From positions 992,001 to 1,056,000 of the forward strand of contig CAVOGR010000001.1 of the NCBI GenBank assembly GCA_963695555.1: a stretch of DNA of 64,000 nucleotides, given 5' to 3'. A program made the position numbers and the translations under genes. A model generated the notes under the pieces. That model had not been told where the DNA came from, searched no databases, and saw only the letters and a list, made by a program, of their open reading frames with translations. This document shows positions 46,113-64,000 of the stretch, one piece after another; positions within the stretch are counted from its first letter, which is position 1; every line of letters begins with the position of its first letter. The stretch is from an uncultured Gemmatimonadales bacterium. Its GTDB lineage: Bacteria; Gemmatimonadota; Gemmatimonadetes; Gemmatimonadales; GWC2-71-9.

Positions 46113-49100
46113 CCTTCCGGAAATGGCCGGCGCTGACCCAGGCGCAGTTGGAGGAAGAGCTCTTGGCGCTCTGGAGCGCCGAGGACCTGTTTCACCGGAT
46201 CCAGCGTCGCGCCGACGGCGCCGAGTCGTTCGTGTTCTACGAGGGGCCGCCGACGGCCAACGGCCGTCCGGGGATCCATCACGTCTTCGCCCGGACCATC
46301 AAGGATCTGATCTGCCGGTTCCACGCCATGCTGGGAAGCGGGTGACGCGGATCGCCGGATGGGACACGCACGGATTGCCCGTCGAAATCGAGGTGGAGAA
46401 GGCGCTCGGCCTGAACGGGAAGCAGGACATCGAACGGTTCGGGGTCGCGAAGTTCAACGGCCGCTGCCGCGAGAGCGTGTTCGCGTACAAGTCGGAATGG
46501 GAGCGGTTGTCGGATCGGATCGGGTTACTGGCTGGATTACGACCATCCGTACGTCACGTACAGCGAACGACTACGTCGAGACCGTCTGGTGGTTGCTCGC
46601 GCCGGCTGTACGACCGTGGGCTGCTACGCGCGGGCACAAGGTGCTGCCGTACTGCCCCCGCTGCGGGACGGTGCTCTCGAGCCACGAGCTGGCTCTGGGC
46701 TACGGGACGTCACCACCCGCTCCGTCTACGTCCAGCTTCCGCTCCTGGACGATCCCACCCGCAAACTGCTGGTCTGGACGACGACGCCGTGGACGCTCCT
46801 GTCCAACGTCGCGGTCGCCGTCAATCCGGACCTCGGTACGTGGAGTACATGGACGGCTCGCGGCTCATCCTCGTCGAGCGGGCGGCGCCATTCAGCTCGA
46901 GGCGGCCCGGGTGGCGACGTGGGTCCCACCGCGACGTTGGCCGACCGGCCGTGCGGGCGGTGTCGACCATGCGCGGCCGCGCCTGGTCGGCGCGCGGTAC
47001 GCCGCCCGTTCGATGTGGTGACCGTACCGAGGGTGACGCCGCATCGGTGTGGTGCCCGGCGATTTTGTCTCGGCCGAGGATGGCTCGGGCTTGGTGCACC
47101 TGGCGCCGGCGTTCGGTGCCGACGACTACGCCGCCGGAACGCGAGCACGGTCTCGCGTTCGTCAATCCCGTTCAGGCGGATGGGACCATTCCGAGGCACC
47201 GCCTGGCCGACCTCGAGGGGCGGCAGGTCACGGCAAGGAAACCAACGCGCTGATCATCGAGCGACTGGAAGACGACGGCACGTGGCACCGACCGAGGCGT
47301 ACGAGCATGCGTATCCGCACTGCTGGCGCTGCCGCAGCCATTGATCTACTATGCGCGCGACTCGTGGTTCGTTCGCACCTCGGCGGTCACGGACCGGATG
47401 CTCAGGCCAACGCGTCGGTCGGGTGGCATCCGCCGGAGGTCGGCTTCGGGCGGTTTGGGGCCTGGCTCGAAAACAACATGGATTGGGCCCTGTCGCGGGA
47501 CCGGTATTGGGGCACGCCGCTGCCGGTGTGGGTGTGCGATGCCGACCCCGAGCACACCGAGGTCATCGGGAGCTACGATCAGTTGTCGGAGCGGTGGGGC
47601 AGGCCCCTGCCGGCGGGCTTCGATCCGCACAAGCCGTTCATCGACTCGGTCACCTGGATGTGCGCATGTGGGGGTACCATGCGCCGCACACCGGAGGTCA
47701 TCGACACGTGGTTCGATTCGGGCGCCATGCCGTACGCGCAGTGGCACTATCCGTTCGAGCACGAGTCGGAATTCGAGTCACACTTTCCCGCCGACTTCAT
47801 CTGTGAAGGGATCGACCAGACGCGGGGATGGTTCTACTCGCTCCTGGCGATCGCCGTGACGGCGTTCGAGCAGGCGCCGTATCGCAATGTCGTCGTCAAC
47901 GAGCTGGTGCTCGACTCGGACGGCCAGAAGATGTCGAAGAGTCGCGGCAACGTGGTGGAGCCGTGGGACGTTATCCAGACATTTGGCGCCGACACGGTGC
48001 GGCTCTACCTCATCGCCTCGAGCCAGGTGTGGTTGCCCAAACGATTCGACGCGCGGACCATTGCCGAAGTCGCGGGTGGGTTCTTCGAGACGCTCAAGCA
48101 CACGTACACGTTCTTTGCGCTGTACGCGGGCGACTGGAGCCCGGCACCGGCGCCGTCCGATCGCCCGCTGGTGGACCGGTGGCTCGCGAGCCGCCTTGCC
48201 GCAACGGTTGAGGCGGTAACCGCGAGCTGGGCGGCGTATGACGTCACCACGGGCCTCCGGGCCCTGATGGATTTCGTGGTCGATGATCTCTCCAACTGGT
48301 ACGTCCGGATCAACCGCGACCGCTTCTGGGCCCCCGACACCACGCCCGATCCGGCGGCGCTTGCCACCCTCTACGAGGCCCTGCTCACCACGGCCCGGCT
48401 GTTGGCGCCCGCCGCACCGTTCGTGAGCGATTGGCTGCACCGCGCGCTCGGGGACGGCTCGGTGCACCTCGCACGATTCCCCGATGCGGGAGCGGCACGT
48501 GATCCGGGGCTCGAACAGGCCATGGCCGCCATCCGGCAGCTGGTCTCGCTCGGCCGGGCCGGCAGGGAGTCCGCCGGCCTCCGAGTCACGGCAACCGCTC
48601 GCGCGTATGCAGGTTGCCGTGCCGGCCGGCGTGTTGGGACAGTACGAGAACGAGTTGCTGGAACTGCTCCGAACCGAGGTCAACGTCAAATCGGTGGGGG
48701 TGGTGGCGTCGGACGCCGATCTCGTTCGCCTGAAGGGCAAGCCCAATTTTCGGGCCCTCGGCAAGCGGTTCGGGAACGAGACGCCGGAAGTCGCCAAGGC
48801 GGTGTCACGACTCACCCCGGAGCAGCTGCGTCAGCTGGAAGAGGGTGAGGAAGTGAGCGTGGAGGTGAACGGGGCCCGATACTGTTATCTTCCTGGGGAC
48901 CTCGTGGTCGAGCGTGAGGTCGTGAGTGACTGGCTGGTCCAGAGCAGCGGGCAATGCGTGGCGGCGCTCGATCCGACCCTGTCGCCCGAATTACGCCGGG
49001 AAGGCGTGGCACGGGAGTTGATCCATCGGATCCAGCGGCTCCGAAAAGAGGCCGGCTACGAGTACACGACGCGGATCGCTCTGAGCATCGCGGGCCCCGA

Positions 49101-49272
49101 AGAGGTGCTGGAAGCCGTGCGGACGCATGAGGCCTTCATTCGCGGGGAGACATTGGCCCGCGAGCTCCATGTCGGCGGCTCCCTCCACGCGCCCGACGTC
49201 GAGCGGGAAATCGACATCGATCAAACACGTGCGATCGTTGGCCTCAAGGCCCACGCGACGCCCACTGAGTAA
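46109..49272 (+). CDS. ileS: Isoleucine--tRNA ligase type 2, many apparent frameshifts
   Basis: EGPPTANG-x-PGIHH, GWDTHGLP, WTTTPWT, GSGLVHLAP, DWALSR-x-RYWGTP, DQTRGWFY, KMSKS in successive frames; indels cluster at 46335-47410, one more near 48590. Confidence 0.93.
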
Positions 49273-50217: not shown

Positions 50218-51204
50218 GTGCTCGTCGCGACGACGGAACGGCTCGACCGGTTCCTTGCTGATCAACTTGGCCTCTCCCGGACCCGTGCGGCTCGGCTCGT
50301 CGCCGGAGGCCATGTGTCCGTGGACGGGGTTCGCGCACGCGCGTCGCGCCGGTTGATCCGCGGGGAGCAGGTCACGGTGGAGGTTGCCGAGTCCGAGCCC
50401 CTGACAACGCTCAAGCCGGCGTCGATTCCCCTCACGGTGGTGTACGAAGACGAGGCGCTGGCGGTCATCGATAAGCCCGCCGGACTCGTCGTCCACCCTG
50501 CGCCTGGACATTGGGACGATACGTTGCTCAACGCATTGGTGGCGCGCGGGACGCCGTTGGCCGGTGGGGCGGAGGGCCGCCCCGGCATCGTGCATCGCCT
50601 GGATCGGGACACGTCGGGCCTCATGCTCGTGGCCAAGACGGAACAGGCACACCGGCGCTTGTCGAAGGCGTTGGCCTCCCGCCGGGTCTCCCGTTGCTAC
50701 GCGGCGATGACCTGGGGGCACCTGACCCAAAGCCCTACCACCATCGATGGCCCCATCGCTCGACATCCGGAGGATCGGAAGCGCATGACGGTGCTTGCCG
50801 GGGGCCGGTCGGCGCAGACCACCGCATGGGTCGTCGCACGCTACGGCCCCGTCGAACTGCTCCGCGTTGAACTCGGGACGGGCCGAACCCACCAGATCCG
50901 GGTCCACCTCAGCTACATCGGGCATCCGATCGTGGGTGACCCGGTCTACGGTGGTGGCGGAAGCCGGCGCATCTCGGGCCCCGATCGGAAGACCGCGGAG
51001 GCTATCGAGCGAGCGGCGCCACGCCAGGCACTCCACGCGGCGCTGCTCGGCTTCCGGCATCCGCTGACCGATGAGGAACTCGTGTTCACGTCCGAGTGGC
51101 CGGTCGATCTGAGGCCCGCGCTCGATGTGGCGGCAGATGACGCAAGTCTGGTTGCTGAAAGAGAACCGCTTCGGTATCTTCGTTTCTTCAATAGAGATGG
51201 CTAG
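50218..51204 (+). CDS. rluD: RluA-family pseudouridine synthase (RluD-like)
   Basis: S4 domain RLDRFL, HRLDRDTSG, GRTHQIRVH, LHA; start uncertain. Confidence 0.9.
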   Translation: MLVATTERLDRFLADQLGLSRTRAARLVAGGHVSVDGVRARASRRLIRGEQVTVEVAESEPLTTLKPASIPLTVVYEDEALAVIDKPAGLVVHPAPGHWDDTLLNALVARGTPLAGGAEGRPGIVHRLDRDTSGLMLVAKTEQAHRRLSKALASRRVSRCYAAMTWGHLTQSPTTIDGPIARHPEDRKRMTVLAGGRSAQTTAWVVARYGPVELLRVELGTGRTHQIRVHLSYIGHPIVGDPVYGGGGSRRISGPDRKTAEAIERAAPRQALHAALLGFRHPLTDEELVFTSEWPVDLRPALDVAADDASLVAEREPLRYLRFFNRDG

Positions 51205-51625
51205 TTCCGACCCGATGCGTGTGCTCGTCTTTCAGGTTGGAGACCTGGCATGCGGGATACCCGCCGAGTGGGTTCGCGAGGTCCTCCCGGCAGCCACGGC
51301 GACGCGAATCCCCGGTGCACACCCGGTCGTGGACGGCCTGGTCAACGTCCGCGGCAGGATTCTCACTGTGATCGACGGGCACCGCCTACTCAACCGAGCA
51401 CCGCTGCCCGAGCAAGAGGGGGTCACCATCATGGTGGACCTCGCCGGACACTCGTACGGTCTGCGGGTCAGCCAAGTGGACGATCTGTACGAAGTACGCG
51501 AGCAGGACCTCGAAGCGGCCACCGATGCGGCCGCAGGGCACGGTCATGTCGTGCAGGTCGAGGATGGCCCGCAGTTCGTTCTTCTCGGCATCGAATCCCT
51601 CCTGGCGCCGGTTGCCGGGACGTGA
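51197..51625 (+). CDS. cheW: Chemotaxis coupling protein CheW
   Basis: TRIPGA, GLVNVRG-x-I-x-x-VID, GLRV. Confidence 0.88.
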   Translation: MASSDPMRVLVFQVGDLACGIPAEWVREVLPAATATRIPGAHPVVDGLVNVRGRILTVIDGHRLLNRAPLPEQEGVTIMVDLAGHSYGLRVSQVDDLYEVREQDLEAATDAAAGHGHVVQVEDGPQFVLLGIESLLAPVAGT

Positions 51626-51686
51626 CCAACGACCGGGTTCCAGCGTTGTTTCCGTTGCAGTGTCCCGTTCTCCGTGGAGGCAGTCT

Positions 51687-52049
51687 GTGAGCCACACCAT
51701 CCTCGTGTGCGATGACGCGATCTTCATGCGGACGATGATCGGCGATATCCTCACCGGAGCCGGGTATGAGGTCGTCGGCGAGGCGGAGACCGGCGTCCAA
51801 GCGGTGGAGCAGTACTCTCGGCTGAAGCCCGATCTCGTCACGATGGACATCGTCATGCCCGAAATGGGGGGGATCGACGCCGTTCGCGAGATCCGGCGCC
51901 TGGACCCCGACGCCAAGATCCTGATGTGCAGCGCTATGGGACAACAGGCACTCGTGGTCGAGGCGATCCAAGCCGGAGCCAAGGACTTTGTCGTCAAGCC
52001 ATTCCAGCCGTCCCGTGTGCTCGAGGCCGTTCAGCGCGTGTTGGGGTGA
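51687..52049 (+). CDS. cheY: Single-domain response regulator CheY
   Basis: DD, MDIVMP, MCSAMGQQ, KPF; GGAGG RBS. Confidence 0.93.
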   Translation: MSHTILVCDDAIFMRTMIGDILTGAGYEVVGEAETGVQAVEQYSRLKPDLVTMDIVMPEMGGIDAVREIRRLDPDAKILMCSAMGQQALVVEAIQAGAKDFVVKPFQPSRVLEAVQRVLG

Positions 52050-52052
52050 GTC

Positions 52053-53918
52053 ATGGACCGTGCCCGGTATACGGACTTGTTCCTGACGGAGGGTCGCGAG
52101 CATCTCGTGACATGCGCCCACCTTCTGCTCGAATTGGAGCAGGCACCCCGTGAGCTGGAACCGGTCCATGGCCTCTTCCGTGCCATGCATACGCTCAAGG
52201 GAATGGCAGCCACGATGGGGTATTCGCAAGTCACCGATCTGTCCCACCAGATGGAAACCGTGCTCGACGCGGTGCGTCAGGGAGAGCGCCGGGTAAACCG
52301 CCCGCTCATCGATGTTCTTCTCGAGACGGTGGATGCGCTGACGGCGGGTATCGAAACCGCTGTTGCAGGCCAGGACGCCGAGTTGGATTTTCGGGACCTC
52401 CTGGCCCGGCTGAACAAGAGGCCGCGCACGCGCAAACGGGTATCGGGCGATGCCGTGATACCCGAGACGAAGCCATCGCCTGCCGGTATGTGGGTCGAGG
52501 TCGTGATCGATCCGGCCGCTCCGATGCGCGGAGGCCGAGCGGCGGTGCTTCTCCGCGAGGCCGAAGCACTTGGCGCCGTCAGCACAGTCACGCCCTCAGC
52601 CAGCGAACTCGAGCGCGAGTCCTTCACGGGCCAATTTGGGTTCCATTTGGCGTCGGACGCCGCGCCGGCAGCTATTGCGACGCGGCTGCGAACCGTTGGT
52701 GACGTGCTCGAAGTCACGTGTGTTCCCCGTTCACCGGGGAGCCGGACGCCAGGCCCCGCCGAACGGGACGCAGCCAAGCGGTCGACACCGACTGTTCGCG
52801 TCGATCGCCGCCGGCTGGATGCCCTGATGAATCAGATCGGTGAACTCGTCGTGACCAAGAACCGGCTGGCATCGCTGGCGGCCGCCGGCGGTGGGGAGTT
52901 CTCGGCGGCCATTGATAGGATGGCCCGTTTGGTGTCGGAGATGCAGGCAGAGGTCATGTTGGCCCGATTGACTCCGGTTGCGGAGGTTGTCGATCGGTTC
53001 CCTCGGATGGTGCGGGACTTGTCGCGCGTAGTGGGCAAAGAAGTGTCGCTCAACGTGGAGGGGCGCCACATCGAGGTCGATCGCTCGATCCTGGAACAAA
53101 TCGGCGAGCCGCTGCTTCACCTCCTCCGCAACGCTATGGATCACGGCATCGAGTCAGTGGAGGCTCGAGTGAAGGCGGGGAAGCCGCGCGCGGGACAGTT
53201 ATCGCTCATTGCGGCGCGCGAACGCAATAGCGTGACGTTCGAAGTGCGCGATGACGGTGCAGGAATCGACCGCGCGGCGATCCTGGAGAAGGCCAGGCGA
53301 GAGGGATCCGTGGCTGAGCCCGTGACCTCGTTGACGGACGAACAACTGCTCGAGGTGCTTGCACGCCCCGGCTTCAGTACGGCCGAGCGGGTGACGAGCG
53401 TGTCGGGGCGCGGTGTCGGTGTGGATGTGGTCCTCACGCGCATTCGGGCGTTAGGGGGGTCGGTCGAGATTCGATCGGAGGTCGGCCACGGAACGTCGGT
53501 AACCTTGCGGCTTCCACTCACGGTCGTCCTGTTGCGTGCCCTCCTGGCCCGGGTCGGGCAGGAACGGTATGTGATTCCGGTGACCCATGTCGCGGAAACG
53601 GTGTTCCTCGACTCGCGGAGCGCCACGACCCTCGACGGGCGGCAGGCGCTCACTCTGCGCGATCAAGTTATTCCCACGGTGCGGCTGCGCGATCTGGCAG
53701 GATTTCCCAACGAGCCCACCCCGGCACGGCAACCGTGCGTGGTGTTCGAGGTCGGTTCGCGGCGCACCGCCTTGGTGGTCGATGCCCTCCTCGGCCAGGA
53801 GGAGATCGTGGTCGAGCCCTTCGAGCCACCGAGTGGCACGCCGGCAGTGTTTAGCGGAGCAACCATCCTATCGGACGGAGTACCGTCCCTGATTCTCGAC
53901 GCCGCAGCCGTGGTATAA
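52053..53918 (+). CDS. cheA: Chemotaxis histidine kinase CheA
   Basis: HPt FRAMHTLKG, P2 domain, HLLRNAMDHG, DDGAG, SGRGVG, C-terminal CheW-like domain. Confidence 0.96.
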   Translation: MDRARYTDLFLTEGREHLVTCAHLLLELEQAPRELEPVHGLFRAMHTLKGMAATMGYSQVTDLSHQMETVLDAVRQGERRVNRPLIDVLLETVDALTAGIETAVAGQDAELDFRDLLARLNKRPRTRKRVSGDAVIPETKPSPAGMWVEVVIDPAAPMRGGRAAVLLREAEALGAVSTVTPSASELERESFTGQFGFHLASDAAPAAIATRLRTVGDVLEVTCVPRSPGSRTPGPAERDAAKRSTPTVRVDRRRLDALMNQIGELVVTKNRLASLAAAGGGEFSAAIDRMARLVSEMQAEVMLARLTPVAEVVDRFPRMVRDLSRVVGKEVSLNVEGRHIEVDRSILEQIGEPLLHLLRNAMDHGIESVEARVKAGKPRAGQLSLIAARERNSVTFEVRDDGAGIDRAAILEKARREGSVAEPVTSLTDEQLLEVLARPGFSTAERVTSVSGRGVGVDVVLTRIRALGGSVEIRSEVGHGTSVTLRLPLTVVLLRALLARVGQERYVIPVTHVAETVFLDSRSATTLDGRQALTLRDQVIPTVRLRDLAGFPNEPTPARQPCVVFEVGSRRTALVVDALLGQEEIVVEPFEPPSGTPAVFSGATILSDGVPSLILDAAAVV

Positions 53919-53927
53919 GGAGGCCTG

Positions 53928-54548
53928 ATGGCGGATCTGCGACAGCTCACGGATCTGGAAATCGACGCGCTACGTGAGGTTGCCAGCATCGGAGCCGGCC
54001 ACGCCGCGACGGCACTGTCGCAAATGATTGAGCGCACCGTCATGATCAGTGTGCCGACGGTGCGCGTTGTCCCGCTCGAGGAGGTCGGGCAGCTCGTAGG
54101 ACGCCCGGACGACATCGTAGCCGCCGTGTTGATGCACATGATGGGCGATCTCACGGGGCGCACCCTCCTGGTCTTTCCCGAGAGCGCCGCCAAGCAGCTC
54201 TGCGACATCTTGTTGCGACGAACCGGCGGGTCCACCCTGACATTCGCCGTCATGGAACAATCGGGTCTCAAGGAGGTCGGGAACATCCTCAGCAGCGCCT
54301 ATTTCAACGCGCTGAGCGATTTTATGGGCATGATGCTCATGCCATCGATTCCCAGCTTGGTGATTGACTATTCCGCGGCAGTGTTGACCAGCACCACCTT
54401 GAATTTTGGGCACGCGCGTGATTCCGTCCTGTGTGTGGAGACCGACCTCAGGGTGCGAGATTCCGGGGAAAAGGTGACGGGCCACTTCATGCTCATGCCG
54501 GATCTCCCGTCCTTGCAGGCCATCTTCGACGCCGTCCGCCTTGCGTAG
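53928..54548 (+). CDS. cheC: CheY-P phosphatase CheC
   Basis: DALREVASIGAGHAATALS and SGLKEVGNI repeats; AAGGAGG RBS. Confidence 0.92.
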   Translation: MADLRQLTDLEIDALREVASIGAGHAATALSQMIERTVMISVPTVRVVPLEEVGQLVGRPDDIVAAVLMHMMGDLTGRTLLVFPESAAKQLCDILLRRTGGSTLTFAVMEQSGLKEVGNILSSAYFNALSDFMGMMLMPSIPSLVIDYSAAVLTSTTLNFGHARDSVLCVETDLRVRDSGEKVTGHFMLMPDLPSLQAIFDAVRLA

Positions 54549-54551
54549 CGC

Positions 54552-57269
54552 ATGGATGTTTCTGCGCTGTCCGACCGCGACCTCTCCATCCTCCGCGCCT
54601 TCGCGTCGCGGGTCGATCCATCCGATGCGGGCGGCCACAACAATCTGGGCGTGCTGTATTTTCGCAAAGGCCTGATTCCGGAAGCCATCGCCCAGTTCAC
54701 TCACGCGCTCGAACTCGATCCTCGAATGCAGGTGGCGCAGGACAATCTGCGCCTGGCGTACCACGGCACCGGATACTACGATCGCCGAGTCACCGAACTC
54801 CGGGAACATCTGCGCCGCGAACCGGAGGACCGGGACGCCCGGTGGGAGTTGGGCAAGGTGTACGCCTCGTTGAGACAGTACGATGCGGCCGCGGCCGAAT
54901 TCGAAGCCTTGCTCGCTCGGCATCCGTACGACGTGCGCGCGGTCGTGCAGCTTGGCCTGTGTGAAAAGGCGCGCGGCAACATTCCCCGGGCCGAGGAGTG
55001 GTTCAGCCGGGCGTGTCGGCTCGATCCCGAGAGTCCGGTGGCACGGTTCTACCTCGGTGAGGCTCTCTACAACCGGGGGCTGAACGAGCAAGCCTTGGTC
55101 GAACTGTCGCAGTCGGTTAGCCTGAATTCCGATAACGCCGAGGCCCAATACATTCTCGGCTTCGTCTATGGCGATCTCGGCCGGCATGAGGAGGCGCGGC
55201 GTGCGACCCGCCGGGCCATCGAGCTGAACCCGACCCTTGGCCGCGCGCATGCCAACTTGTCGCTCCGCCCTGACGAGGGCAGCGAGGCGGGCCGGTCCGC
55301 TGCCGCACCGGGTGACGCGAACGACCTTGCGGTTGCCGAGAACACGGCGCTTGCCCACTACAATTTGGGACTGGCCTTCCGCCAAAAAGGATACCATGCG
55401 GAGGCCCTCCGCGAGTATCGGCTCGCCCTCGAACACGGGGAAGAGCGCCAGCTCGTCCTCCAAGCCATGGCCGAGGTCCACCTGCTCAAGCGCGACCTGA
55501 GCGCCGCGCTCGAATTGTACGACCGGTTGGTGGTGGATTATCCGGACTCTCCAAAGCTCTGGAATGAACGAGGCGTCTGCCTCCAACAGGCCGGCCGCCG
55601 AGAGGCCGCCCTCGAGTCCTATCAGAGCGCCGTCGGTACGGACGAGACCTACGCCCTCGCCTGGAACAACCTCGGCGTGGCCCAGGCCCAGGTGCCCGAC
55701 TTCGATGCCGCGTCCGACGCCTTCCGGGCGGCGATCCGCCATAAGTCGGATCTTCTCGCCGCGCGGCTCAACCTCGCACTGCTGCTCTTTCAGCGTCGCC
55801 GTTTCCAGCTCGCGCTGGAGGCCTACCGGCATGCGCTGGCGGACGATCCGGACAATGCGGTCGCCTGGAACGGTGTGGGCCTGATTCTCATGGAATTGAA
55901 GCGATACGCCGACGCCAAGAATGCTTTCGCCAGAGCCGTCGAGACAGACCCCGAGCACGCCCCGGCCCACTATAACCTGAGCTTCGTCTTGAGCCAGCTC
56001 GGCGATTTCGACGGTGCGCTGCGCGAAACCAAACATGCGCTCGAATTGGAATCGTACTATGTACCTCAGCGGTACGATTTGACGATCGACCTCCAGTACG
56101 AGCATACAACCATTTCTGTGGCCCCGGTGCTCTCGGGCGACGAAGTCGCGGGTGAATTGCCGGACGACTTCGTCTTCGACGAGCGATTACTCGACGATCT
56201 CTTTGCGACGTTGGCGCCGGATGCGGATCAGTCGGATGACACGGCTCCCCAGCCGGGGCGTGAGCTGTCGCTCGCCCTGGCGCGCGACTACATCAGCAAA
56301 GGCCTCTTGGAGCTGGCCACGGCCGAACTGAATCGAGCGCGCCGGCGGGGCGCTTCCGCTGGCCAAGTGGCCGCGCTGTTAGGCGACATTTTTGCCAGAC
56401 GAGGGCTGCACGGCGAGGCACTGGAACGCTACCGCGAGGCGATCGACCTGGATCACCGCGATCTGGACGCCCGGGTTGGCGAGGTGCAGAGCCTCCTCGC
56501 CCTCGATCGTCTTGGTGAAGCGGCGCAGTCAGCGTCCGATCTCGAACCCATGGCAGCCGGAAGCGTCGACGCCTTGATGGTCTGCGCCAAGGTGCGCGTG
56601 CGCGTGGGGGAGCTGGTCCCGGCCCTCGATCTGCTCAAGGCGGCGCAGGCCTCCGCCCCGGAACGGGGTGAACTCTACCAACTGCAAGCCCAAGCAGCTG
56701 TGAAACTCGGCGACCTGGAAGCGGCCAGCGACGCATACCGGCACGCGCTCGCGCTGGACCCCAACCTGGTCATGGTGTGGCATGAGGTCGGCCAGTTGGA
56801 AGAGGCCCGACGCGACTGGACCGCGGCACGGGCGGCTTATGCGCAGGCGCTGGATCTGCTCCCCACCTTCATGGACGCGACGCTGGCACTCGCGGACGGC
56901 ATGCGTCGGCACGAATCGCCGCGTCAAGCGGTGAGCTATTTGGTCGAAGTCCTGGCCAGCGACCCCTATGAGTTCGAGGCCCTGGTGCTGCTCGGCCGCA
57001 GCCTGCTCGACGACGGCCGCCCGGATCGTGCCATCGAGGCATTCGATCGCGTCCTCAGGTTTGTGCCAGATCATGCCGACGCGTTGTATTTTCGAGGGCT
57101 CGCGTTGGAGCGGCAGCGGCGATTGGCAGAGGCCGTGGAATCCTGGCACCAGGCCATCCAATCCAATCCCGCCGGCCAGTACGCCCAGGCTGCCCGCCTC
57201 AGGATGCGGTCGGCCCGGGACCTCTCCGAAATCTTCAAGGTGCCGAGTGGAGTGAACGGTGGCGATTGA
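54552..57269 (+). CDS. Large cytoplasmic TPR protein (905 aa)
   Basis: Many TPR units (HNNLG, YNLG, WNNLG) with an acidic linker; no signal peptide. Confidence 0.9.
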   Translation: MDVSALSDRDLSILRAFASRVDPSDAGGHNNLGVLYFRKGLIPEAIAQFTHALELDPRMQVAQDNLRLAYHGTGYYDRRVTELREHLRREPEDRDARWELGKVYASLRQYDAAAAEFEALLARHPYDVRAVVQLGLCEKARGNIPRAEEWFSRACRLDPESPVARFYLGEALYNRGLNEQALVELSQSVSLNSDNAEAQYILGFVYGDLGRHEEARRATRRAIELNPTLGRAHANLSLRPDEGSEAGRSAAAPGDANDLAVAENTALAHYNLGLAFRQKGYHAEALREYRLALEHGEERQLVLQAMAEVHLLKRDLSAALELYDRLVVDYPDSPKLWNERGVCLQQAGRREAALESYQSAVGTDETYALAWNNLGVAQAQVPDFDAASDAFRAAIRHKSDLLAARLNLALLLFQRRRFQLALEAYRHALADDPDNAVAWNGVGLILMELKRYADAKNAFARAVETDPEHAPAHYNLSFVLSQLGDFDGALRETKHALELESYYVPQRYDLTIDLQYEHTTISVAPVLSGDEVAGELPDDFVFDERLLDDLFATLAPDADQSDDTAPQPGRELSLALARDYISKGLLELATAELNRARRRGASAGQVAALLGDIFARRGLHGEALERYREAIDLDHRDLDARVGEVQSLLALDRLGEAAQSASDLEPMAAGSVDALMVCAKVRVRVGELVPALDLLKAAQASAPERGELYQLQAQAAVKLGDLEAASDAYRHALALDPNLVMVWHEVGQLEEARRDWTAARAAYAQALDLLPTFMDATLALADGMRRHESPRQAVSYLVEVLASDPYEFEALVLLGRSLLDDGRPDRAIEAFDRVLRFVPDHADALYFRGLALERQRRLAEAVESWHQAIQSNPAGQYAQAARLRMRSARDLSEIFKVPSGVNGGD

Positions 57270-58407
57270 AGGGCCGCTAAAAGAACTCCACATCGACGAC
57301 GTCTTCCAGCTCATGGACTTGGGCCGAAAGACCGGCGTCCTGCACGTCACGTCCGAGCTGCGGGAAAACGCAGGCACCGTGTTCTTCGAGAACGGGTGGG
57401 TGGTGGGTGCCATGATCGCGACCAATCCGCATCCACTCGGGGAGCTGTTGATCCGGACGGGGAAAGTGGCCGAAGAAGACGTCGTCCGTGCACGGACCCT
57501 TCAGACAAGCCGCCCAGGCCGGCGCTTGGGGGAGCTGTTAGTGGAGATCGGAGCGATTTCCCGTCGGGAACTCGACCGACACATCCGTGCGCAGGTCGAG
57601 GAAGTCGTCTTCGAGTTGATGAGTTGGTCCGAGGGATACTTCCGCTTCGAGGAGGGAGAGCCGGGGCAGACTCCGGCCGAAGCCTCGTTTCGAATCGCAC
57701 CGGAGGCGCTGCTCATGGAGGCGGCGCGACGAATCGATGAATGGAGTCGGATCGTCGCCAAGATTCCGCATCAGGGGGTAGTGCCGGGGCTCAATCCGGA
57801 ACAGGCCACCGCCACCGCCGCGCTGGAACTGGTCCCGTTCGAGTGGGAAGTGCTTGCGGCCGTCGATGGAACGGCCACGGTTCGCGACGTGGCCCGGCGG
57901 GTTCGACAGCCCGAGTTCGACGTCGCCAAGACGCTCTTTGGACTCGCGTCGGCCGGCATCATCATCATCCGCGATGCGACGACCGACGGCGGCAACGGTG
58001 CCGGCCGGGGAGTGGAGGTGCTGTCGGCCCAGGCCGATGACCACCTCCAGGCTGGGGACCTGGCCGGAGCCCACCTCGTGGCCCAGGACGCCGTCCTCGC
58101 CTATCCCGACGACGGGGAGGCCTTTCTCGTCCTCGCCCGGGTGTCCCTTGCCAACGGGCGATTCGGCGAAGCCCTGGATGCCGCTCATCGGGCGCTTGCC
58201 CTCCAAGGTCAAACGGGGCCTGGACTTCGGCTGCTCGGTCTGGCTCTTGCAGGGGCAGGTCGTTTTGGGGACGCCTTGGGAGCGTGGGACCGCTGGAAGG
58301 GCTTGGAGACCATGGATCCAGCCGAACGAAGACATTGGGACACGATCGATCGCCTGGAGGATGCGGCGAAGCTCTTGAATAATGCGGTCCGTGGGCGCCA
58401 TGAGTGA
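57259..58407 (+). CDS. DUF4388 (PATAN-like) + MshEN-like + wHTH-like + TPR protein
   Basis: EGPLKEL-x-x-x-DVFQL...KTG, RLGELL, WSEG-x-F-x-F, LLMEAARRIDEW, VDGTATV. Confidence 0.88.
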   Translation: MAIEGPLKELHIDDVFQLMDLGRKTGVLHVTSELRENAGTVFFENGWVVGAMIATNPHPLGELLIRTGKVAEEDVVRARTLQTSRPGRRLGELLVEIGAISRRELDRHIRAQVEEVVFELMSWSEGYFRFEEGEPGQTPAEASFRIAPEALLMEAARRIDEWSRIVAKIPHQGVVPGLNPEQATATAALELVPFEWEVLAAVDGTATVRDVARRVRQPEFDVAKTLFGLASAGIIIIRDATTDGGNGAGRGVEVLSAQADDHLQAGDLAGAHLVAQDAVLAYPDDGEAFLVLARVSLANGRFGEALDAAHRALALQGQTGPGLRLLGLALAGAGRFGDALGAWDRWKGLETMDPAERRHWDTIDRLEDAAKLLNNAVRGRHE

Positions 58408-59248
58408 CAGTATCCGGGCCATGACGGCCCAGCTGGTCAGCGATCCCGCCAGCATGATCTTCCTGCCGCTGGGAGAGGCCCTGCGCCAGCGCGGACAGCT
58501 CGACGCCGCCGAGAAAGTGGCGCTGGCTGGCCTTGGGCGCTACTCCGAATCGGCCGATGCGCACGACCTGTACGCCAGGATTCTCGGGGATCGCGGTCAA
58601 CTCGAATTGGCATTCGATGAGTGGGACATCGCCCTCCGGCTGGAGCCGGACCACGTCGGGGCGCACAAAGGCATCGGGTTCCTGTATTTCGTGGCTGGCG
58701 AGCTCGACCGGGCATTGGCCCACCTCGAGACGGCCGCCCGGAAGCTGCCGGACGATGATGGGGCCCAAACAGCCCTGGCTCGGGTCAAGGAGGCTCTCGC
58801 TCGCCGAGCGGCGGCAGGGAATGGGGCCGGACGGGAGACAGATACGGCGGTGCTGACTGAGGAGCAGGCGGTGGTACCCGGTGCCGACCCATCCCGGCTG
58901 TTCCTGGGCTTGGAAGGAGCCGAGGACGGCCTCCTGCTTCTCGATACGAGGGGACTTCGCCTCGGTGGTGGATTGACCAGTCCCGAGGGCGACGACGTAG
59001 CCGATGCCGTCTCGGCCCACCTCGCGGGCGTGTCGCAGGAAGCTTCCCGCACTGCCCGGCTACTCGGGCTGGGGGCGTGGATCAGCCTGGCTGCAGAGTC
59101 GCCGGATGGTCATCTGTTCGTGGTGGCTCCAACGCCGGAGACTCTGTTGCTTCTCGTTCGGGAGCAGAGCGTTCCCTTGGGACGCCTGGGCGTGGTTGCC
59201 GACCATGCGGCCGGGGTCGCGCGGGCTTGGCTCGAGGGATTGCAGTGA
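58400..59248 (+). CDS. TPR + C-terminal roadblock/LC7 protein
   Basis: DPAS-x-x-F-x-x-LGEALR TPRs; LLLLDTRGL...ETLLLL...PLGRL. Confidence 0.82.
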   Translation: MSDSIRAMTAQLVSDPASMIFLPLGEALRQRGQLDAAEKVALAGLGRYSESADAHDLYARILGDRGQLELAFDEWDIALRLEPDHVGAHKGIGFLYFVAGELDRALAHLETAARKLPDDDGAQTALARVKEALARRAAAGNGAGRETDTAVLTEEQAVVPGADPSRLFLGLEGAEDGLLLLDTRGLRLGGGLTSPEGDDVADAVSAHLAGVSQEASRTARLLGLGAWISLAAESPDGHLFVVAPTPETLLLLVREQSVPLGRLGVVADHAAGVARAWLEGLQ

Positions 59249-59595
59249 TGCCGGAGTTCGCAACTGCACTCGACTTGATCACCCGGGTCCACGGCGTCCG
59301 CGGCGCCATGCTGGTGTCAGTCTCAGACGGACTCGTTGTCGCCGAATCGTCCATGGACGGTGTGGACGGCGCGCCGGTCGCGGCGCTCACCGCAAGCCTT
59401 GCCGGCCGGCTGCGGCGCACCACTGAAGCGGCGGGACGACGACTGCCGACCTTCATCCACCTCCGGGCGGCAACAGGGACCGTGCTCGCGGTGCCGTCCA
59501 ACGACGACCTGCTCGTCGTGACGATTGGCGCTCCGGACATCAATGTCGGCCTGGCTCGGTTGGAAATGCTCCACGTCGCGGAGCGAGGGATTTGA
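59248..59595 (+). CDS. Roadblock/LC7 protein (MglC-like)
   Basis: VHGVRGAMLV-x-x-x-DGLVV, NVGLARLEM; TGATG coupling. Confidence 0.85.
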   Translation: MPEFATALDLITRVHGVRGAMLVSVSDGLVVAESSMDGVDGAPVAALTASLAGRLRRTTEAAGRRLPTFIHLRAATGTVLAVPSNDDLLVVTIGAPDINVGLARLEMLHVAERGI

Positions 59596-60056
59596 TGCGA
59601 GCCGTTGAGCCATGGGTGGAAGGTCCGCTCGCGGCGTTCCTGGATGAGTCGGCTGCGCGGCTCACGCTGTTGATGACCTCGGCTGGCCAGGTACTGGCCC
59701 AGCATGGGTTCACGCGCGCCTTCGACGTCATGTCTGCCGCGGCGTTGGGCGCTGGGATCATGGCGTCGACCGACGAGCTTGCGCGTCTGATGGACGCGCC
59801 GCCCTTTCGCGCCTTGGCGCACCAGGGAGTCCATCACGGCTTGTTCCTTTCCGGCTTCGACACGCCCCAAGGACGGTGGATCGGACTCGTGGTCTTCGGG
59901 CCTGAGAGTTCACTCGGGCTGGTTCAGCTGTTCTTCCAGCGCCTCGTGGCGGACTTGGCCAAGCAGGCCCCGACCGAAGCTCCAAGCAACCGGGTGTTGG
60001 GATCAGATTTCGAGGACGAGCTCAACGCCAGCCTGCGAACCCTTTTCGGTCAGTAG
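59595..60056 (+). CDS. mglB: MglB-like roadblock protein (putative GAP of MglA)
   Basis: AAALGAG-x-x-A-x-x-x-x-LARL, HQG, VVF-x-x-x-SSLGLV, C-terminal amphipathic helix; adjacent to mglA. Confidence 0.8.
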   Translation: MRAVEPWVEGPLAAFLDESAARLTLLMTSAGQVLAQHGFTRAFDVMSAAALGAGIMASTDELARLMDAPPFRALAHQGVHHGLFLSGFDTPQGRWIGLVVFGPESSLGLVQLFFQRLVADLAKQAPTEAPSNRVLGSDFEDELNASLRTLFGQ

Positions 60057-60059
60057 CAT

Positions 60060-60662
60060 ATGTCGCTTGTCAACTTCACGTCCCGCGAGATCACCTGTAA
60101 GATCGTCTATTACGGACCAGGCCGATCCGGCAAGACGAGCAATCTTCAGTACATCTATGGTCGGGTTCCGGAAGCGCGCCGGGGCCGCATGGTGTCGCTC
60201 GCCACCAAAGGCGACCGCACGCTGTTTTTCGATTTTCTCCCGCTCGAGCTCGGGACAATCTCAGGATTCGTCACACGATTCCAGTTGTACACCGTGCCCG
60301 GGCAGGTGTACTACAATGCGACCCGGAAGCTGGTGTTGCAGGGTGCAGACGGTATCGTTTTTGTGGCCGACAGCCAAGCCCGGCGATTCGACGATAACCT
60401 CGAGAGCCTCCAGAACCTGCAAGAGAATTTGCTCGCGCACGGTGTCGATATTCGGGAATTGCCCCTCGTCTACCAATACAACAAGCAGGATCTCCCTGCG
60501 GATCTCATCCTCGGGCCGGACGAACTCGATGATGCCTTGAATTTTCGAGCGGTCCAGAGCTTCGGCGCCGATTGTCTGAGCGGGAACGGCGTGTTTGAGA
60601 CATTGCGGGGCATTTCAGAGCTCGTGTTGAAGCGCCTGGCCGCGGGGAGCCGGGTTGCGTGA
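60060..60662 (+). CDS. mglA: MglA-family small GTPase
   Basis: KIVYYGPG-x-SGKTSNL, DRTLFFDF, YTVPGQ, NKQD. Confidence 0.95.
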   Translation: MSLVNFTSREITCKIVYYGPGRSGKTSNLQYIYGRVPEARRGRMVSLATKGDRTLFFDFLPLELGTISGFVTRFQLYTVPGQVYYNATRKLVLQGADGIVFVADSQARRFDDNLESLQNLQENLLAHGVDIRELPLVYQYNKQDLPADLILGPDELDDALNFRAVQSFGADCLSGNGVFETLRGISELVLKRLAAGSRVA

Positions 60663-62611
60663 TCTCGCTGCTCAAGCCCTCGTGTCGCTTCACCACGTTG
60701 GTGGTGGCACCCACCAACCAACTTGCGGTGACCGCGGCCCGGGCCGTGGCGGACTCTCCGGGCCGCATCTATAACCCGCTCTACATTTACGGTGGGCCAG
60801 GACTGGGCAAGACCCACCTGCTGATGGCCATTGGGCACTCGGTGTTGGACATCGACCCCTCGTGCACCGTGGAATACCTGAGCATCGAGGACTTCGCCTC
60901 TGCCTGGCCCACTGCGAGGAATGCCGGCGAAGAGGAAGCCTACCGCCGGCACTATGTCGAGGCCGAGGTGCTGCTGCTGGATGACATTCACCTCCTCGCC
61001 TATCGTCGCGACCTGCAGCTGGAAATTCTCCGGGTTCTCGACAGTGTGCTCGAGCGGAATCACCAGGTCGTCATGGCATCTGATCGGGCGCCGAACCGGA
61101 TCGACGGATTGGACGAGCGTCTGGCACGGCGTTGTGCCGCTGGCTTGGTGACCGATGTAGCTACCCCGGCGCCCGAGACCCGGCTCGAGGTCGTGCGCCG
61201 CAGGGTGCAGGAGCGCGGCGCGGTGTTCCACCCGGACATCCTCGAACTGCTGGCCGGCGCCGGCCAATCGGATCTCCGACAGCTGCTCGCTCTCGTGGAC
61301 AAGTTTCAAGAGGTGCAGCGGCGCACGCATCTGCCGCTCACCGTCGAGGCGGCCCGGGGACTCCTCAACGACATGGGCCTGGCAGAGGCCACCGGTCCAG
61401 CCGGTGACGGTCAAAGTCTTCGGCCTCACGCCGACGAGTTCGGAACCTTTCTTAGCGATGTGACCACCACCGTGGCCGGACAGCTCGAAGCGTGGCGAAG
61501 TCGAGTGGCCGAGGCCATCCTCCGGTGGGAGGGGGAAGGATTCCGCACTCGCCGCCTCGAGGCGTTGCTCCAGGCCGATCTTCCAGCGGATCCCAACGCG
61601 ATTCTCGAATCTTTCACGGCCGATGTGGAACGGCTGCGCGGTCTCGAATCAGAAGCCCAGACCGTATCGCCCGACCTGGTCGGGTCGCCGTTGTTCCGGG
61701 ATCCGGACCAGGTGGCCGCCGCCGCCGCCTTGGTCGAGCATGCGAGGCAAGGCCGGCATCCGCTTCCGGCGCCTTCTCGCATGTGGCGCCTAGAGGACCT
61801 CGTCGAGGCGCCGGGCAATCTGGACGCGCTCAGCTCGGCGTGGCGTGTCATAGACCAACCGGGAACCCGTCACAACCCGCTCGCTGTCGTTGCGCCGAGC
61901 GGGTGTGGGAAGACCCATGTGCTCCATGGCATCGCCAACAAGCTCGCGGAGGCACCCAACGCGACGATCGCATGTCTCACCGCCAGCGACTTCATCGCGG
62001 ACCTCGAGGCGGCGCGCGAGGCCAACCGGCTCTCGGCCTGGCAATCACGGTATCGCGGGGTAACCGGGCTCCTGATCGACGACATCCACCGGTGGGCCGA
62101 CCACCCGCCGCTCGGCGCCGAGCTGGTGGAGCTGCTCGACGCACTGCTCGAGGCCCGCGCCCAACTGGTGGTCAGCTCGGTCGTTCCCCTGCCGCAGTTG
62201 GCGCTGGACCGGGGCATCATGGACCGCCTCCAGGGCGGCCTCGTTGTGGCCCTCGCTCCTCCAGACCGTGACATCCGGTCCCGCGTCGTCGAGCGACTCC
62301 TGGCCGCCAAGCTCAGTCTGGTGGATCCCGAGCTGACATCCTACCTGGCGAATCGACCGGCGGAGTCGGTGCGAAGTCTGCAAGGCCTGGTGCACCGGTT
62401 GCTCAACAACGCCGAGGTCCAAGGGAAAACGCCGACGGTGGCGTTTGCCCGCGAGCTCCTGGAGGGAATGCCGCAGGCGCCGCCCGCCCGCGAGCAGAGA
62501 ACCCGGCTGAGCGGTGTTGTGGTGCCTGTGGCCGGCGGCCTCCGGAGCCGCGAGAAAATGGTCTGGCATTGGCCCGATGCCGGTGACCGGGTAGTGGAGG
62601 AGTGGAGCTGA
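60659..62611 (+). CDS. Tandem DnaA/Hda-like AAA+ ATPase without DNA-binding domain
   Basis: YNPLYIYGGPGLGKTHLL + LLLDDIH and HNPL...APSGCGKTHVL + LLIDDIH; no DnaA domain I or IV. Confidence 0.88.
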   Translation: MISLLKPSCRFTTLVVAPTNQLAVTAARAVADSPGRIYNPLYIYGGPGLGKTHLLMAIGHSVLDIDPSCTVEYLSIEDFASAWPTARNAGEEEAYRRHYVEAEVLLLDDIHLLAYRRDLQLEILRVLDSVLERNHQVVMASDRAPNRIDGLDERLARRCAAGLVTDVATPAPETRLEVVRRRVQERGAVFHPDILELLAGAGQSDLRQLLALVDKFQEVQRRTHLPLTVEAARGLLNDMGLAEATGPAGDGQSLRPHADEFGTFLSDVTTTVAGQLEAWRSRVAEAILRWEGEGFRTRRLEALLQADLPADPNAILESFTADVERLRGLESEAQTVSPDLVGSPLFRDPDQVAAAAALVEHARQGRHPLPAPSRMWRLEDLVEAPGNLDALSSAWRVIDQPGTRHNPLAVVAPSGCGKTHVLHGIANKLAEAPNATIACLTASDFIADLEAAREANRLSAWQSRYRGVTGLLIDDIHRWADHPPLGAELVELLDALLEARAQLVVSSVVPLPQLALDRGIMDRLQGGLVVALAPPDRDIRSRVVERLLAAKLSLVDPELTSYLANRPAESVRSLQGLVHRLLNNAEVQGKTPTVAFARELLEGMPQAPPAREQRTRLSGVVVPVAGGLRSREKMVWHWPDAGDRVVEEWS

Positions 62612-64000
62612 TGGCCATCAAGGGCAGCCTCAAAGAGGCCAGTCTTCCCGATGTGATTCAGCTTCTGGCCATGGGCCAGAAGACGGGCTGCTTGGCCGTC
62701 GCCCACCGCCACAATTTCGGCTACGTCTACTTCCGAAACGGCCGCATCATCTACGCCTCCATTGTCAACCGGCGCGATCGGCTCGGCGATATCCTGGTGA
62801 ACAGCGGTCGAATCTCCCCCGAGCAATTGGCGCAAGCCATCGACCTGCAAGGCACATTCGATGACAAGAAGCTCGGCCAGATATTGGTCGATACCGGAGC
62901 GATTTCGCGCGAGGAATTGGTGCAGTACGTGGCCTTACAAATCGAGGAGGCCGTCTATTTCCTCTTCACGTGGAACTCGGGAACATTCAATTTCGAAGTC
63001 GATGTGCAGCCTGCAAGTCAGGATGTGCTCGTCTCCATCGCCCCGGAAACATTGCTGCTCGAGGGCGCCAGGCGGGTCGACGAGTGGAGTCTCATCCAAC
63101 ACAAGATCCCGAGCTTCGATCTCATCTTCGAAGTCCGCGAGAGCCGGATCGCCGCGTCGACAGCCACGCTCTCTCCAGAACAAGAGCGGTTGCTCCCCCT
63201 TCTCGACGGACAGCGCGACGTCAGCCAATTGATCGACGCGGCCGGCATGGGTGAATTCGAGGTGGGCAAGGCACTCTTCGGGCTGATCACGGCCGGCTTC
63301 GTTCACCGTGTCGGCACGTCGGCCACGAGTGAAGTCAGCCGGGCCAACGAGGGGCGGATCGAGGAGCACCGCAATCTCGGAATCGCCTTCTACCGGGCCA
63401 GCATGTTGGAGGAGGCCGAGAGGGAATTCCGGCGCGTGGCGGAACTGCGCCCCGCCGATGGGAACGCACCTTTTCATCTCGGACTCATTGCTGTCAAGCA
63501 CGGACGGTGGGAGGAAGCGATCGCGATGTTCCAACGTGCGGTGGAGAAGGGAGGACCGCGTGCGAGTGCGCTCCACAACTTGGCATTCGCCATGGAGCGA
63601 CTCGGGCGGCTGACCGAAGCCGAAGCCACCTATGCGGCGGCCGTCGACAGGGCGCGGGACAATCCGCGCATCATGCTGGGGTGGGGGATCTCGGCACTGC
63701 TGCGCGAAGACCACGCGCTGGCGTCCGCGCGCCTGATCCGGGCGCGGGAACTCATGGGCGAGGCGGATCCGCCCGCTACCTGGTACTGGGCGGCGACACT
63801 GGCGCATGCCGGGTCCGGCAACCAGGCCGCGGCATTGGAGGTGGCTCAGGCAGGAGTGGCGTCCTATCCGGCGAGCGCCGTGTTGAACAACAATCTCGCG
63901 GTGCTCTTGGAGTTGAACGGGGACATCGCCGGCGCCGAGACGCAGCTCGACCGCGCGTTTACCGAGGAGCCCACGCTGCCGCAGATCTCGAAGAACATGG
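62611..64000 (+). CDS. DUF4388 + MshEN-like + wHTH-like + TPR protein, runs off the window
   Basis: Not in ORF track; own translation MAIKGSLKEASLPDVIQLL...RLGDIL...LLLEGARRVDEW...HRNLGIAFY; frame stays open to 64000; TGATG coupling. Confidence 0.9.
   Translation, partial: MAIKGSLKEASLPDVIQLLAMGQKTGCLAVAHRHNFGYVYFRNGRIIYASIVNRRDRLGDILVNSGRISPEQLAQAIDLQGTFDDKKLGQILVDTGAISREELVQYVALQIEEAVYFLFTWNSGTFNFEVDVQPASQDVLVSIAPETLLLEGARRVDEWSLIQHKIPSFDLIFEVRESRIAASTATLSPEQERLLPLLDGQRDVSQLIDAAGMGEFEVGKALFGLITAGFVHRVGTSATSEVSRANEGRIEEHRNLGIAFYRASMLEEAEREFRRVAELRPADGNAPFHLGLIAVKHGRWEEAIAMFQRAVEKGGPRASALHNLAFAMERLGRLTEAEATYAAAVDRARDNPRIMLGWGISALLREDHALASARLIRARELMGEADPPATWYWAATLAHAGSGNQAAALEVAQAGVASYPASAVLNNNLAVLLELNGDIAGAETQLDRAFTEEPTLPQISKNM

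Follow-up and report, generated by a model that had tools for sequence, protein, structure and literature searches.

In the Myxococcus xanthus polarity module (MglA, MglB, MglC, RomR/RomX and RomY, with Frz control and SgmX), which serves here as the comparison system, the chemosensory route to MglA is, to our knowledge, not settled, the genes being scattered in that organism. The TPR protein SgmX is recruited by MglA to activate pili, according to the available text of PMC11580455, and in Synechocystis PATAN binds PilB1 and PilC (available portion of bioRxiv 10.1101/2021.06.11.447907). Closer to the present case, the accessible part of PMC4316618 reports Group 1 MglA proteins with occasional PATAN neighbours in Gemmatimonadetes, and its Table S2 (2014) lists Gemmatimonas aurantiaca GAU_1409 as 'PATAN>MglA>-PATAN>'. 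Here we analyze a window of 64,000 nucleotides from an uncultured Gemmatimonadales bacterium (assembly GCA_963695555.1, contig CAVOGR010000001.1, positions 992,001 to 1,056,000; genome 87% complete), in which candidates for the link from che genes to MglA sit in one array.

We propose, with evenly balanced confidence, that this array encodes a polar hub through which chemosensory (phosphorylated CheY, CheY-P), MglA-GTP and cyclic di-GMP (c-di-GMP) inputs would reach the type IVa pilus motor, the output and the contacts within the hub being the conjectural part. The parts, their intact catalytic motifs, the nested gene order, the independence from flagella, the joint loss of methyl-accepting chemotaxis proteins (MCPs) and che genes, and the invariance of PATAN2 and the motif protein beside it are established directly.

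A polarity core nested within chemosensory genes

The twelve + strand open reading frames (ORFs) named in the first-pass annotation are all present with the identities given there (ORF list, Pfam, NCBIfam), and two further genes beyond the window belong to the array:

51197..51625, + strand: cheW, divergent CheW (PF01584, E 4e-24), sole CheW gene found in the genome
51687..52049, + strand: cheY, Thermotoga/F1-type receiver with the phospho-acceptor motif kept; best PDB match 1tmy (T. maritima-type CheY), E 2e-51
52053..53918, + strand: cheA, with Hpt, P2, dimerisation, HATPase and CheW domains (Pfam) and no receiver; sole CheA match in the genome
53928..54548, + strand: cheC, phosphatase, PF04509 twice; closest NCBIfam model CheC_Thtogales, E 2e-52, below cut-off
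54552..57269, + strand: large TPR scaffold, 905 aa, TPR families (Pfam); in 53 of the 57 loci read
57259..58407, + strand: PATAN1, with a DUF4388/PATAN domain (PF14332, E 3e-33), an MshEN-like insert at ~57433-57594, a winged helix and TPRs
58400..59248, + strand: TPR-Roadblock fusion, TPR and weak PF03259 (E 0.004)
59248..59595, + strand: Roadblock protein 1 (PF03259, E 3e-10; PDB Robl_LC7 7f8m, E 1e-4)
59595..60056, + strand: Roadblock protein 2, MglB homologue (PDB MglB, E 1e-7; NF052242, E 9e-9, far below cut-off)
60060..60662, + strand: mglA, Group 1 small GTPase with catalytic Arg and Gln (PDB MglA, E 1.5e-69 over 1-197)
60659..62611, + strand: tandem DnaA-type AAA+ protein, 650 aa, PF00308 twice; domain III in two copies with a helical linker
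62611..64000, running on to 64230 in the window's numbering, + strand: PATAN2-TPR, 539 aa, with a PATAN domain (PF14332, E 5e-39), an MshEN insert at ~62779-62940, a winged helix and TPRs
64244-64735 in the same numbering, after a gap of 13: cheD, all that this genus retains of the rear che block
64910-65782 in the same numbering: coiled-coil TPR gene, conserved, after cheD

From cheW to PATAN2 the junctions measure 61, 3, 9, 3, -11, -8, -1, -1, 3, -4 and -1 nt, in agreement with the earlier statement that all are overlaps or gaps below 10 nt except cheW-cheY at 61 nt; the TGATG overlaps at 59248, 59595 and 62611 and the GTGA at 60659 are likewise present in the letters. The bounds first assigned to the unit, 51197..64000, capture the gene content and fail at both ends, as the start of cheW overlaps the stop of rluD by 8 nt and PATAN2 ends at 64230, beyond the window. 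Past the coiled-coil TPR gene lie a HExxH-type gene, a 571-aa TPR gene and then the rsmH-ftsL-ftsI division cluster. The tight packing from which a single operon had been deduced is real but is not special evidence, because upstream housekeeping genes also overlap; the evidence for a single unit is the conserved gene order.

This order was traced in a fixed sample of 151 genomes of the phylum, searched with several markers, from which 57 cluster loci were read (40 picked by ATPase match, the rest exceptions and controls, together with the window's own), followed by two more and 80 public loci. In full it runs ileS-dksA-lspA-rluD, then cheW-cheY-cheA-cheC, then TPR-PATAN1-TPR/Roadblock-Roadblock-MglB-mglA-tandem ATPase-PATAN2, then cheR-cheD-cheB-(ExeA-like ATPase)-cheW-cheW, and finally TPR and dcw genes; the Mgl/PATAN genes are flanked by che genes on both sides, so that the polarity core sits within a che operon. 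The order is kept across families f1-f5 and f8. PATAN2 was found in 107 of the 151 genomes, nearly all of them members of the order to which the window belongs or of four small families in the same class, and is lacking in 44, several of which are single-contig. A cluster-type CheA accompanies it in 99 of the 107 and is absent from eight; in 88 genomes it lies no more than 13 kb away on the same contig and strand, and in 11 on another contig, where the positions fit contig breaks (one case, L055/L066, was verified by reading). Neither a cluster-type CheA without PATAN2 nor an unlinked pair on one contig was seen in the 151 genomes. Synteny in relatives, proposed at the outset as a check, is hence upheld by 88 of 88 same-contig genomes and by the same order in the 80 further loci. 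Of the 80 closest PATAN2 loci, 78 are labelled Gemmatimonadota; in the ESM Atlas the full-length tandem ATPase matches Gemmatimonadota clusters only, and the PATAN2 winged helix matches unnamed clusters. The linker region of the tandem ATPase was found in none of 100 genomes from the phylum of a Myxococcales-labelled bin that carries the cluster on a short contig, and the cluster contigs in that bin and in a Limnocylindria bin are probably mis-bins.

Purifying selection acts on the twelve genes (dN/dS 0.04-0.23 against the single same-genus genome sampled), cheD giving 0.42 in the same comparison on the basis of few changes. In metatranscriptome run X1 all of the 30 bins into which the 20 kb region was divided were covered (depth ~4-14, one bin 24), and the other three runs cover the array patchily. 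Contigs from X1 cross at least 10 of the 13 rluD-to-cheD junctions; we rejected these as evidence of co-transcription, since intergenic coverage is equally flat and DNA carry-over is possible. A promoter and terminator scan of the locus gave signals at chance level.

By sequence, the che arm is classed as F1/Dif type. The F1 class of Wuichet and Zhulin 2010 is said to comprise a CheA with P2, CheC, CheD, 44H receptors, CheR and CheB; the P2-bearing CheA, CheC and CheD are present here, and one of two unlinked MCPs (L004) aligns almost ungapped to T. maritima 2ch7, which we take to be a receptor of the 44H class. The closest NCBIfam models, all below cut-off, are CheA_Halo, CheY_Halo, CheC_Thtogales and CheD_Thtga. 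The phospho-acceptor Asp motif occurs in 52 of 52 cluster CheYs and the phospho-His column of CheA is kept in 50 of 51. Among the genes that were to be sought downstream, cheD is present, whereas cheR, cheB and an MCP gene are not there: the cluster contains no MCP gene, the two MCPs of the genome lying elsewhere, CheR and CheB were not found in this genome, and the CheR query had no match in a 98% complete genome of the same genus either. In all 78 of the further loci whose downstream sequence is available, cheR follows PATAN2. This genus has cleanly lost cheR, cheB and the rear cheW genes and retains cheD alone from that block. MCPs were not found in four of five genomes that have lost che genes, the fifth carrying a different CheA, and a sixth genome, which has lost cheA, keeps one sub-threshold MCP remnant. 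Since MCPs vanish along with the che genes, we regard the unlinked MCPs as the inputs of the cluster's che pathway.

The identification of a genuine MglA and MglB homologue is confirmed by PDB matches and intact MglA motifs. Equivalents of Gly21, Arg53, Thr54 and Gln82 and the NKxD motif are present here and in 51 of 53 cluster MglAs, the catalytic roles of those residues having been shown in PMC3199381. In the MglB homologue, which sits directly before mglA, the MglA-binding helix keeps the Ala64 equivalent in 45 of 49 proteins and has Glu at the Gly68 position in 37 of 49; the canonical MglB of the same genome has Gln there. A second, canonical mglBA is usually present elsewhere in genomes of the order, and its occurrence in nearly every one of them leads us to view the cluster MglA as a dedicated paralogue. 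Here the canonical pair lies after recR (L069:6899-8023; G000:C1 844898-846022), and its MglA has a ~30-residue insertion. The large TPR protein may have an SgmX-like role, with no orthology claimed.

A few observations concern particular relatives or the surroundings of the array. In genus g10 (L014, L063) the cluster MglA motifs are lost, the large TPR protein is shortened and the PATAN1 insert is degenerate; CheA and the tandem ATPase are retained. In some relatives (L016, L031, L039, L040) an ExeA-like ATPase, matching the TIGR03015 family below cut-off, stands after cheB in the rear che block. In the window, ileS (46100-49272) is broken across three reading frames in comparison with an intact homologue, which for an essential gene suggests assembly errors in that stretch. 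Between the cluster and rsmH, tRNA-Val (L001:16113-16189) and tRNA-Asp (L001:18028-18103) flank the 571-aa TPR gene.

PATAN2 and the DnaA-derived protein

PATAN2 is present in all 57 cluster loci read. Its insert scores 53.3 bits with NF053729 (cut-off 38), carries a tandem RLG motif and resembles the MshE-c-di-GMP structure 5htl (profile E 5e-8; superposition Z 11.2, rmsd 2.0 A), so that in both motif and fold PATAN2 is a putative MshEN-type c-di-GMP sensor. The PATAN1 insert has its first Arg replaced and reaches 34 bits, just short of the same cut-off of 38; the earlier suggestion of possible c-di-GMP receptors is supported for PATAN2 and qualified for PATAN1. The genome has 15 GGDEF matches, and GGDEF genes persist in genomes with the PATAN2 insert deleted. 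At the C-termini of PATAN1 and PATAN2, Pfam found TPRs and no receiver domain.

The neighbouring tandem protein is a duplication of the DnaA AAA+ core. Its AlphaFold2 model (mean pLDDT 88.7) superposes on domain III of B. subtilis DnaA with an rmsd of 1.5 A over 235 residues, and Pfam, the model and alignment with the genome's own DnaA revealed no domain I and no DNA-binding domain IV. Its two AAA+ domains are on average 39% and 34% identical to that DnaA, whose gene lies on another contig (C2). The Walker A/B sets of both domains are conserved in the family and the arginine-finger position is kept, with sensor I conserved in the first domain only (residue labels as in DnaA). Both domains resemble DnaA more than Hda (Hda model 144 bits, cut-off 194.8), and the pattern that we take to describe the sliding-clamp motif gave one loose match among 52 tandem proteins and none here. 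The TIGR00362 (DnaA) cut-off is passed only by adding the scores of the two domains; database pipelines often name the protein 'chromosomal replication initiator DnaA', so that dnaA counts in this phylum will come out too high. Outside its AAA+ domains the protein carries two short motifs:

61433..61489, + strand: acidic helix motif (residues 259-277), which all six ATPase-less mini-ORFs retain
62552..62605, + strand: C-terminal W-P tail motif (residues 632-649), likewise retained by the six mini-ORFs

The importance of these motifs emerges from natural deletions. Both che flanks are gone and the core is kept in L047-L049 and L059 (two genera); L045, where the rear flank is gone, the upstream end is a contig edge and the genome shows no CheA, has probably lost the che arm too. 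Conversely, L053 and L054 (one genus) have lost the Mgl core and kept the che genes and PATAN2. Roadblocks are gone in L019, L029, L030 and also L026, and in a distant locus, L033, nothing but the ATPase and PATAN2 is left. Six loci from three genera (L050-L054, L065) lack the AAA+ domains, the gene surviving as a mini-ORF of ~60-75 codons that retains exactly the acidic helix and the W-P tail and abuts PATAN2 in five of the six; both motifs occur in 6/6 mini-ORFs, and in each 0/500 shuffles reach the score. L066 has lost one of the two AAA+ domains and retains the first, together with linker and tail. The W-P tail also precedes PATAN2 in 80 of 80 further loci; its final two Glu codons double as the PATAN2 ribosome-binding site, whereas the Trp-Pro part and the helix do not. 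As PATAN2 and the two motifs are the constant element in all deletions, we infer that they form a docking pair, and the array is thereby pared to a two-protein hub testable with a ~65-residue peptide. The picture of a single integrated module thus survives in its composition and not as an obligatory partnership, the che arm or the Mgl arm having been cleanly lost alone in some lineages; similarly, the AAA+ ATPase belongs to the module by its gene and motifs, its ATPase domains being dispensable in six loci. All 52 ATPase-bearing loci retain the MshEN insert of PATAN2; of the six without the ATPase domains, five have it deleted. Binding of the W-P tail to this insert was considered and rejected, since five loci keep the tail without the insert. 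A complex prediction of PATAN2 (1-240) with tandem ATPase residues 225-650 scored 0.00, which gives no verdict and is used neither way. The acidic-helix profile has a second match in this genome, in an unrelated-looking protein.

We also considered the PATAN2 winged helix (window 63091-63330) as a CheF-like binder of CheY-P and set the idea aside: the structural match to the CheF C-terminal domain is weak (Z 5.3, rank 43 among generic winged helices), and profile searches with the winged helix gave no CheF sequence match. Among eukaryotic proteins it most resembles the winged helix of NPRL2 (Z 9.0, profile E 0.07), a GATOR1 subunit acting on Roadblock-containing Rag GTPases, and in one PATAN2 family member it also matches DUF742 of the actinobacterial conservon. 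This hints, weakly, that a winged helix-Roadblock-GTPase theme recurs. Two relatives (L067:4870-8374, L068:7858-10773) have a third PATAN2-like gene with extra fused domains beside chaperone-usher-like pilus genes.

Output of the array and rival explanations

In the mechanism that we envisage, unlinked 44H chemoreceptors would set CheA activity and the level of CheY-P, with CheC as phosphatase. Most relatives would add CheR/CheB adaptation; with both lost in this genus, the pathway here would be more a switch than a gradient sensor. MglA-GTP would mark a pole and bind TPR proteins, the MglB-like Roadblock turning it off with the assistance of the two accessory Roadblocks. The DnaA-derived protein would dock on the PATAN2 core via its two short motifs, its AAA+ domains perhaps serving as an optional, nucleotide-dependent accessory that lineages tend to lose along with the c-di-GMP insert, and PATAN2 might relay the combined signal to PilB/PilC, in the manner of cyanobacterial PATAN domains. 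Further along this line, we tentatively entertain, at clearly lower confidence than the hub itself, that the duplicated DnaA core, without DNA binding and motif-tethered to a c-di-GMP-sensing PATAN-TPR scaffold, forms a split MshEN and AAA+ switch integrating CheY-P and MglA-GTP in one complex, possibly touching DnaA and so coupling surface behaviour to the cell cycle.

The genome encodes PilB and PilT above cut-off and a pilMNOPQ-type cluster. A Tad/Flp pilus cluster (L074:4897-13584, G000:C2) is a second candidate output. A second PilB/GspE-type ATPase, with a C-terminal receiver (L073:9096-11357, G000:C7), is conserved in five of five relatives tested; it was rejected as a partner of the che arm, as it is kept in three of three che-less genomes and so does not track that arm. 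The gliding marker GYF_2 was not found, its control giving no match anywhere either. Control of pili, gliding or polar growth, as put forward in the first-pass annotation, can at this point only be inferred.

Several points weigh against the proposed hub and its pilus output. PilM occurs in 146 of the 151 genomes, including most without the cluster; co-occurrence therefore cannot single out pili, and pili need no cluster. The second canonical mglBA could be the actual pilus polarity switch, and no report of pilus motility in this phylum was found in the literature searched. Either arm is lost alone in some lineages. The PATAN2 winged helix is equally conserved in che-less genomes and offers no hint of a CheY-P site. 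As for the joint loss of AAA+ domains and c-di-GMP insert, the ATPase-less L065 retains the insert, and the five insert-less loci come from two genera and would therefore count as one or two events.

Of the possible outputs, flagella alone are opposed by the data. This genome, 87% complete, yielded neither FliM/N nor flagellin, and across the sample FliM/N occurs in 28 of the 107 genomes with the cluster against 13 of the 44 without it, a pattern rather than a test statistic as kin genomes are not independent. That the array is the main flagellar chemotaxis pathway with unrelated neighbours, as might be argued from CheY, CheC and CheD being closest to Thermotoga-type flagellar proteins, is accordingly very improbable, and largely refuted for the 79 of 107 carriers, this genome included, that show no FliM/N. 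Among flagellated carriers a few showed only the cluster CheA in a survey that scored eight candidates per genome, and many have a second CheA near fliM. The same deletions that expose PATAN2 and its motif protein bear on whether two independent systems share a transcription unit by history, the Mgl/PATAN module having been inserted in a che operon with no functional contact. Loss of the che arm with the core kept (L047-L049, L059, probably L045) and of the core with che genes kept (L053, L054) would fit such a history; yet where the Mgl core is missing, the che genes are still accompanied by PATAN2 and the mini-ORF, where the che genes are missing, the core still has PATAN2 and the motif gene, and the order is kept across f1-f5 and f8 with no unlinked same-contig case, so that we judge it improbable.

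Dif-like control of exopolysaccharide, adhesion or biofilm, in which the che kinase would act on matrix and the Mgl/PATAN core would localise the output or read pilus state and c-di-GMP, is the strongest of the rivals, though still unlikely. The cheW-cheY-cheA order, P2-bearing CheA and 44H receptor match difC-difD-difE and DifA of M. xanthus (PMC3945109, available text), the Geobacter Dif-like clusters add CheC, CheD and CheR (PMC2577667, in the part accessible), and the c-di-GMP motif of PATAN2 and the 15 GGDEF matches would suit such an output. Against it, the cluster has no MCP, unlike dif, no exopolysaccharide gene was seen in the loci read with queries drawn from the cluster's own and flanking genes only, and the PATAN and MglA precedents favour the pilus motor. 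A little less probable again is a coupler of cell cycle or pole morphogenesis, in which the DnaA-derived ATPase co-assembles with DnaA in timing replication or the module places division sites or polar spherical appendages. The cluster does lie between divIVA-ileS-lspA-rluD and rsmH-ftsL-ftsI in loci long enough to show this, Walker A/B and the arginine-finger position are retained in both AAA+ domains, which are more DnaA-like than Hda-like, and asymmetric division and unexplained polar spheres are reported for the phylum in the available part of PMC11271474. But domains I and IV are missing, 51 of 52 scanned proteins lack the clamp-binding motif, six loci have lost the AAA+ domains and another has lost one of the two, and 44 of 151 genomes, several single-contig, do without PATAN2. 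The pilus-directed polar hub is hence the reading that we prefer.

Comparison with known systems

The array varies a known che-plus-MglA theme, with one component undescribed in the literature searched; that literature, with subscription papers mostly outside reach, yielded no description of the array. The GAU_1409 listing corresponds to the arrangement of the Roadblock-less versions in L019, L029 and L030, and in its available part mentions neither the unnamed middle gene nor flanking che genes. The array provides a concrete signalling system for an abundant, poorly understood phylum, in which genetic tools for cultured Gemmatimonadaceae are reported to be lacking, together with a DnaA-derived ATPase in a non-replication role.

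With the M. xanthus polarity module it shares a Group 1 MglA with intrinsic Arg and Gln, an MglB homologue, extra Roadblocks, a large TPR protein, chemosensory input and type IVa pili in the genome; it differs in that all genes lie in one array, a second canonical mglBA is found elsewhere, and two PATAN-MshEN-TPR proteins and a DnaA-derived ATPase are present. In contrast to Frz, where FrzE is a CheA-CheY fusion, the cluster CheA has no receiver, with CheY and CheC separate. The Dif systems of M. xanthus and Geobacter (Dif-like) are matched in the cheW-cheY-cheA(-cheC) order, the P2-bearing CheA and the 44H receptors, with CheD/CheR as in Geobacter, but here the cluster has no MCP and eight non-che genes stand between cheC and cheR/cheD. 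Cyanobacterial Tax/Pix systems with PatA-type (PATAN-REC) proteins likewise have PATAN with a helical MshEN-like insert in a chemosensory operon and a plausible pilus-motor output, whereas the PATAN proteins of this array have TPR ends and no receiver, the kinase class differs and MglA is linked. Finally, the tandem ATPase resembles DnaA domain III and Hda in fold, Walker A/B, sensor II and arginine-finger positions, and departs from them in having two copies per chain, no domain I/IV or clamp motif, a new linker and tail motifs, and an ATPase that is dispensable.

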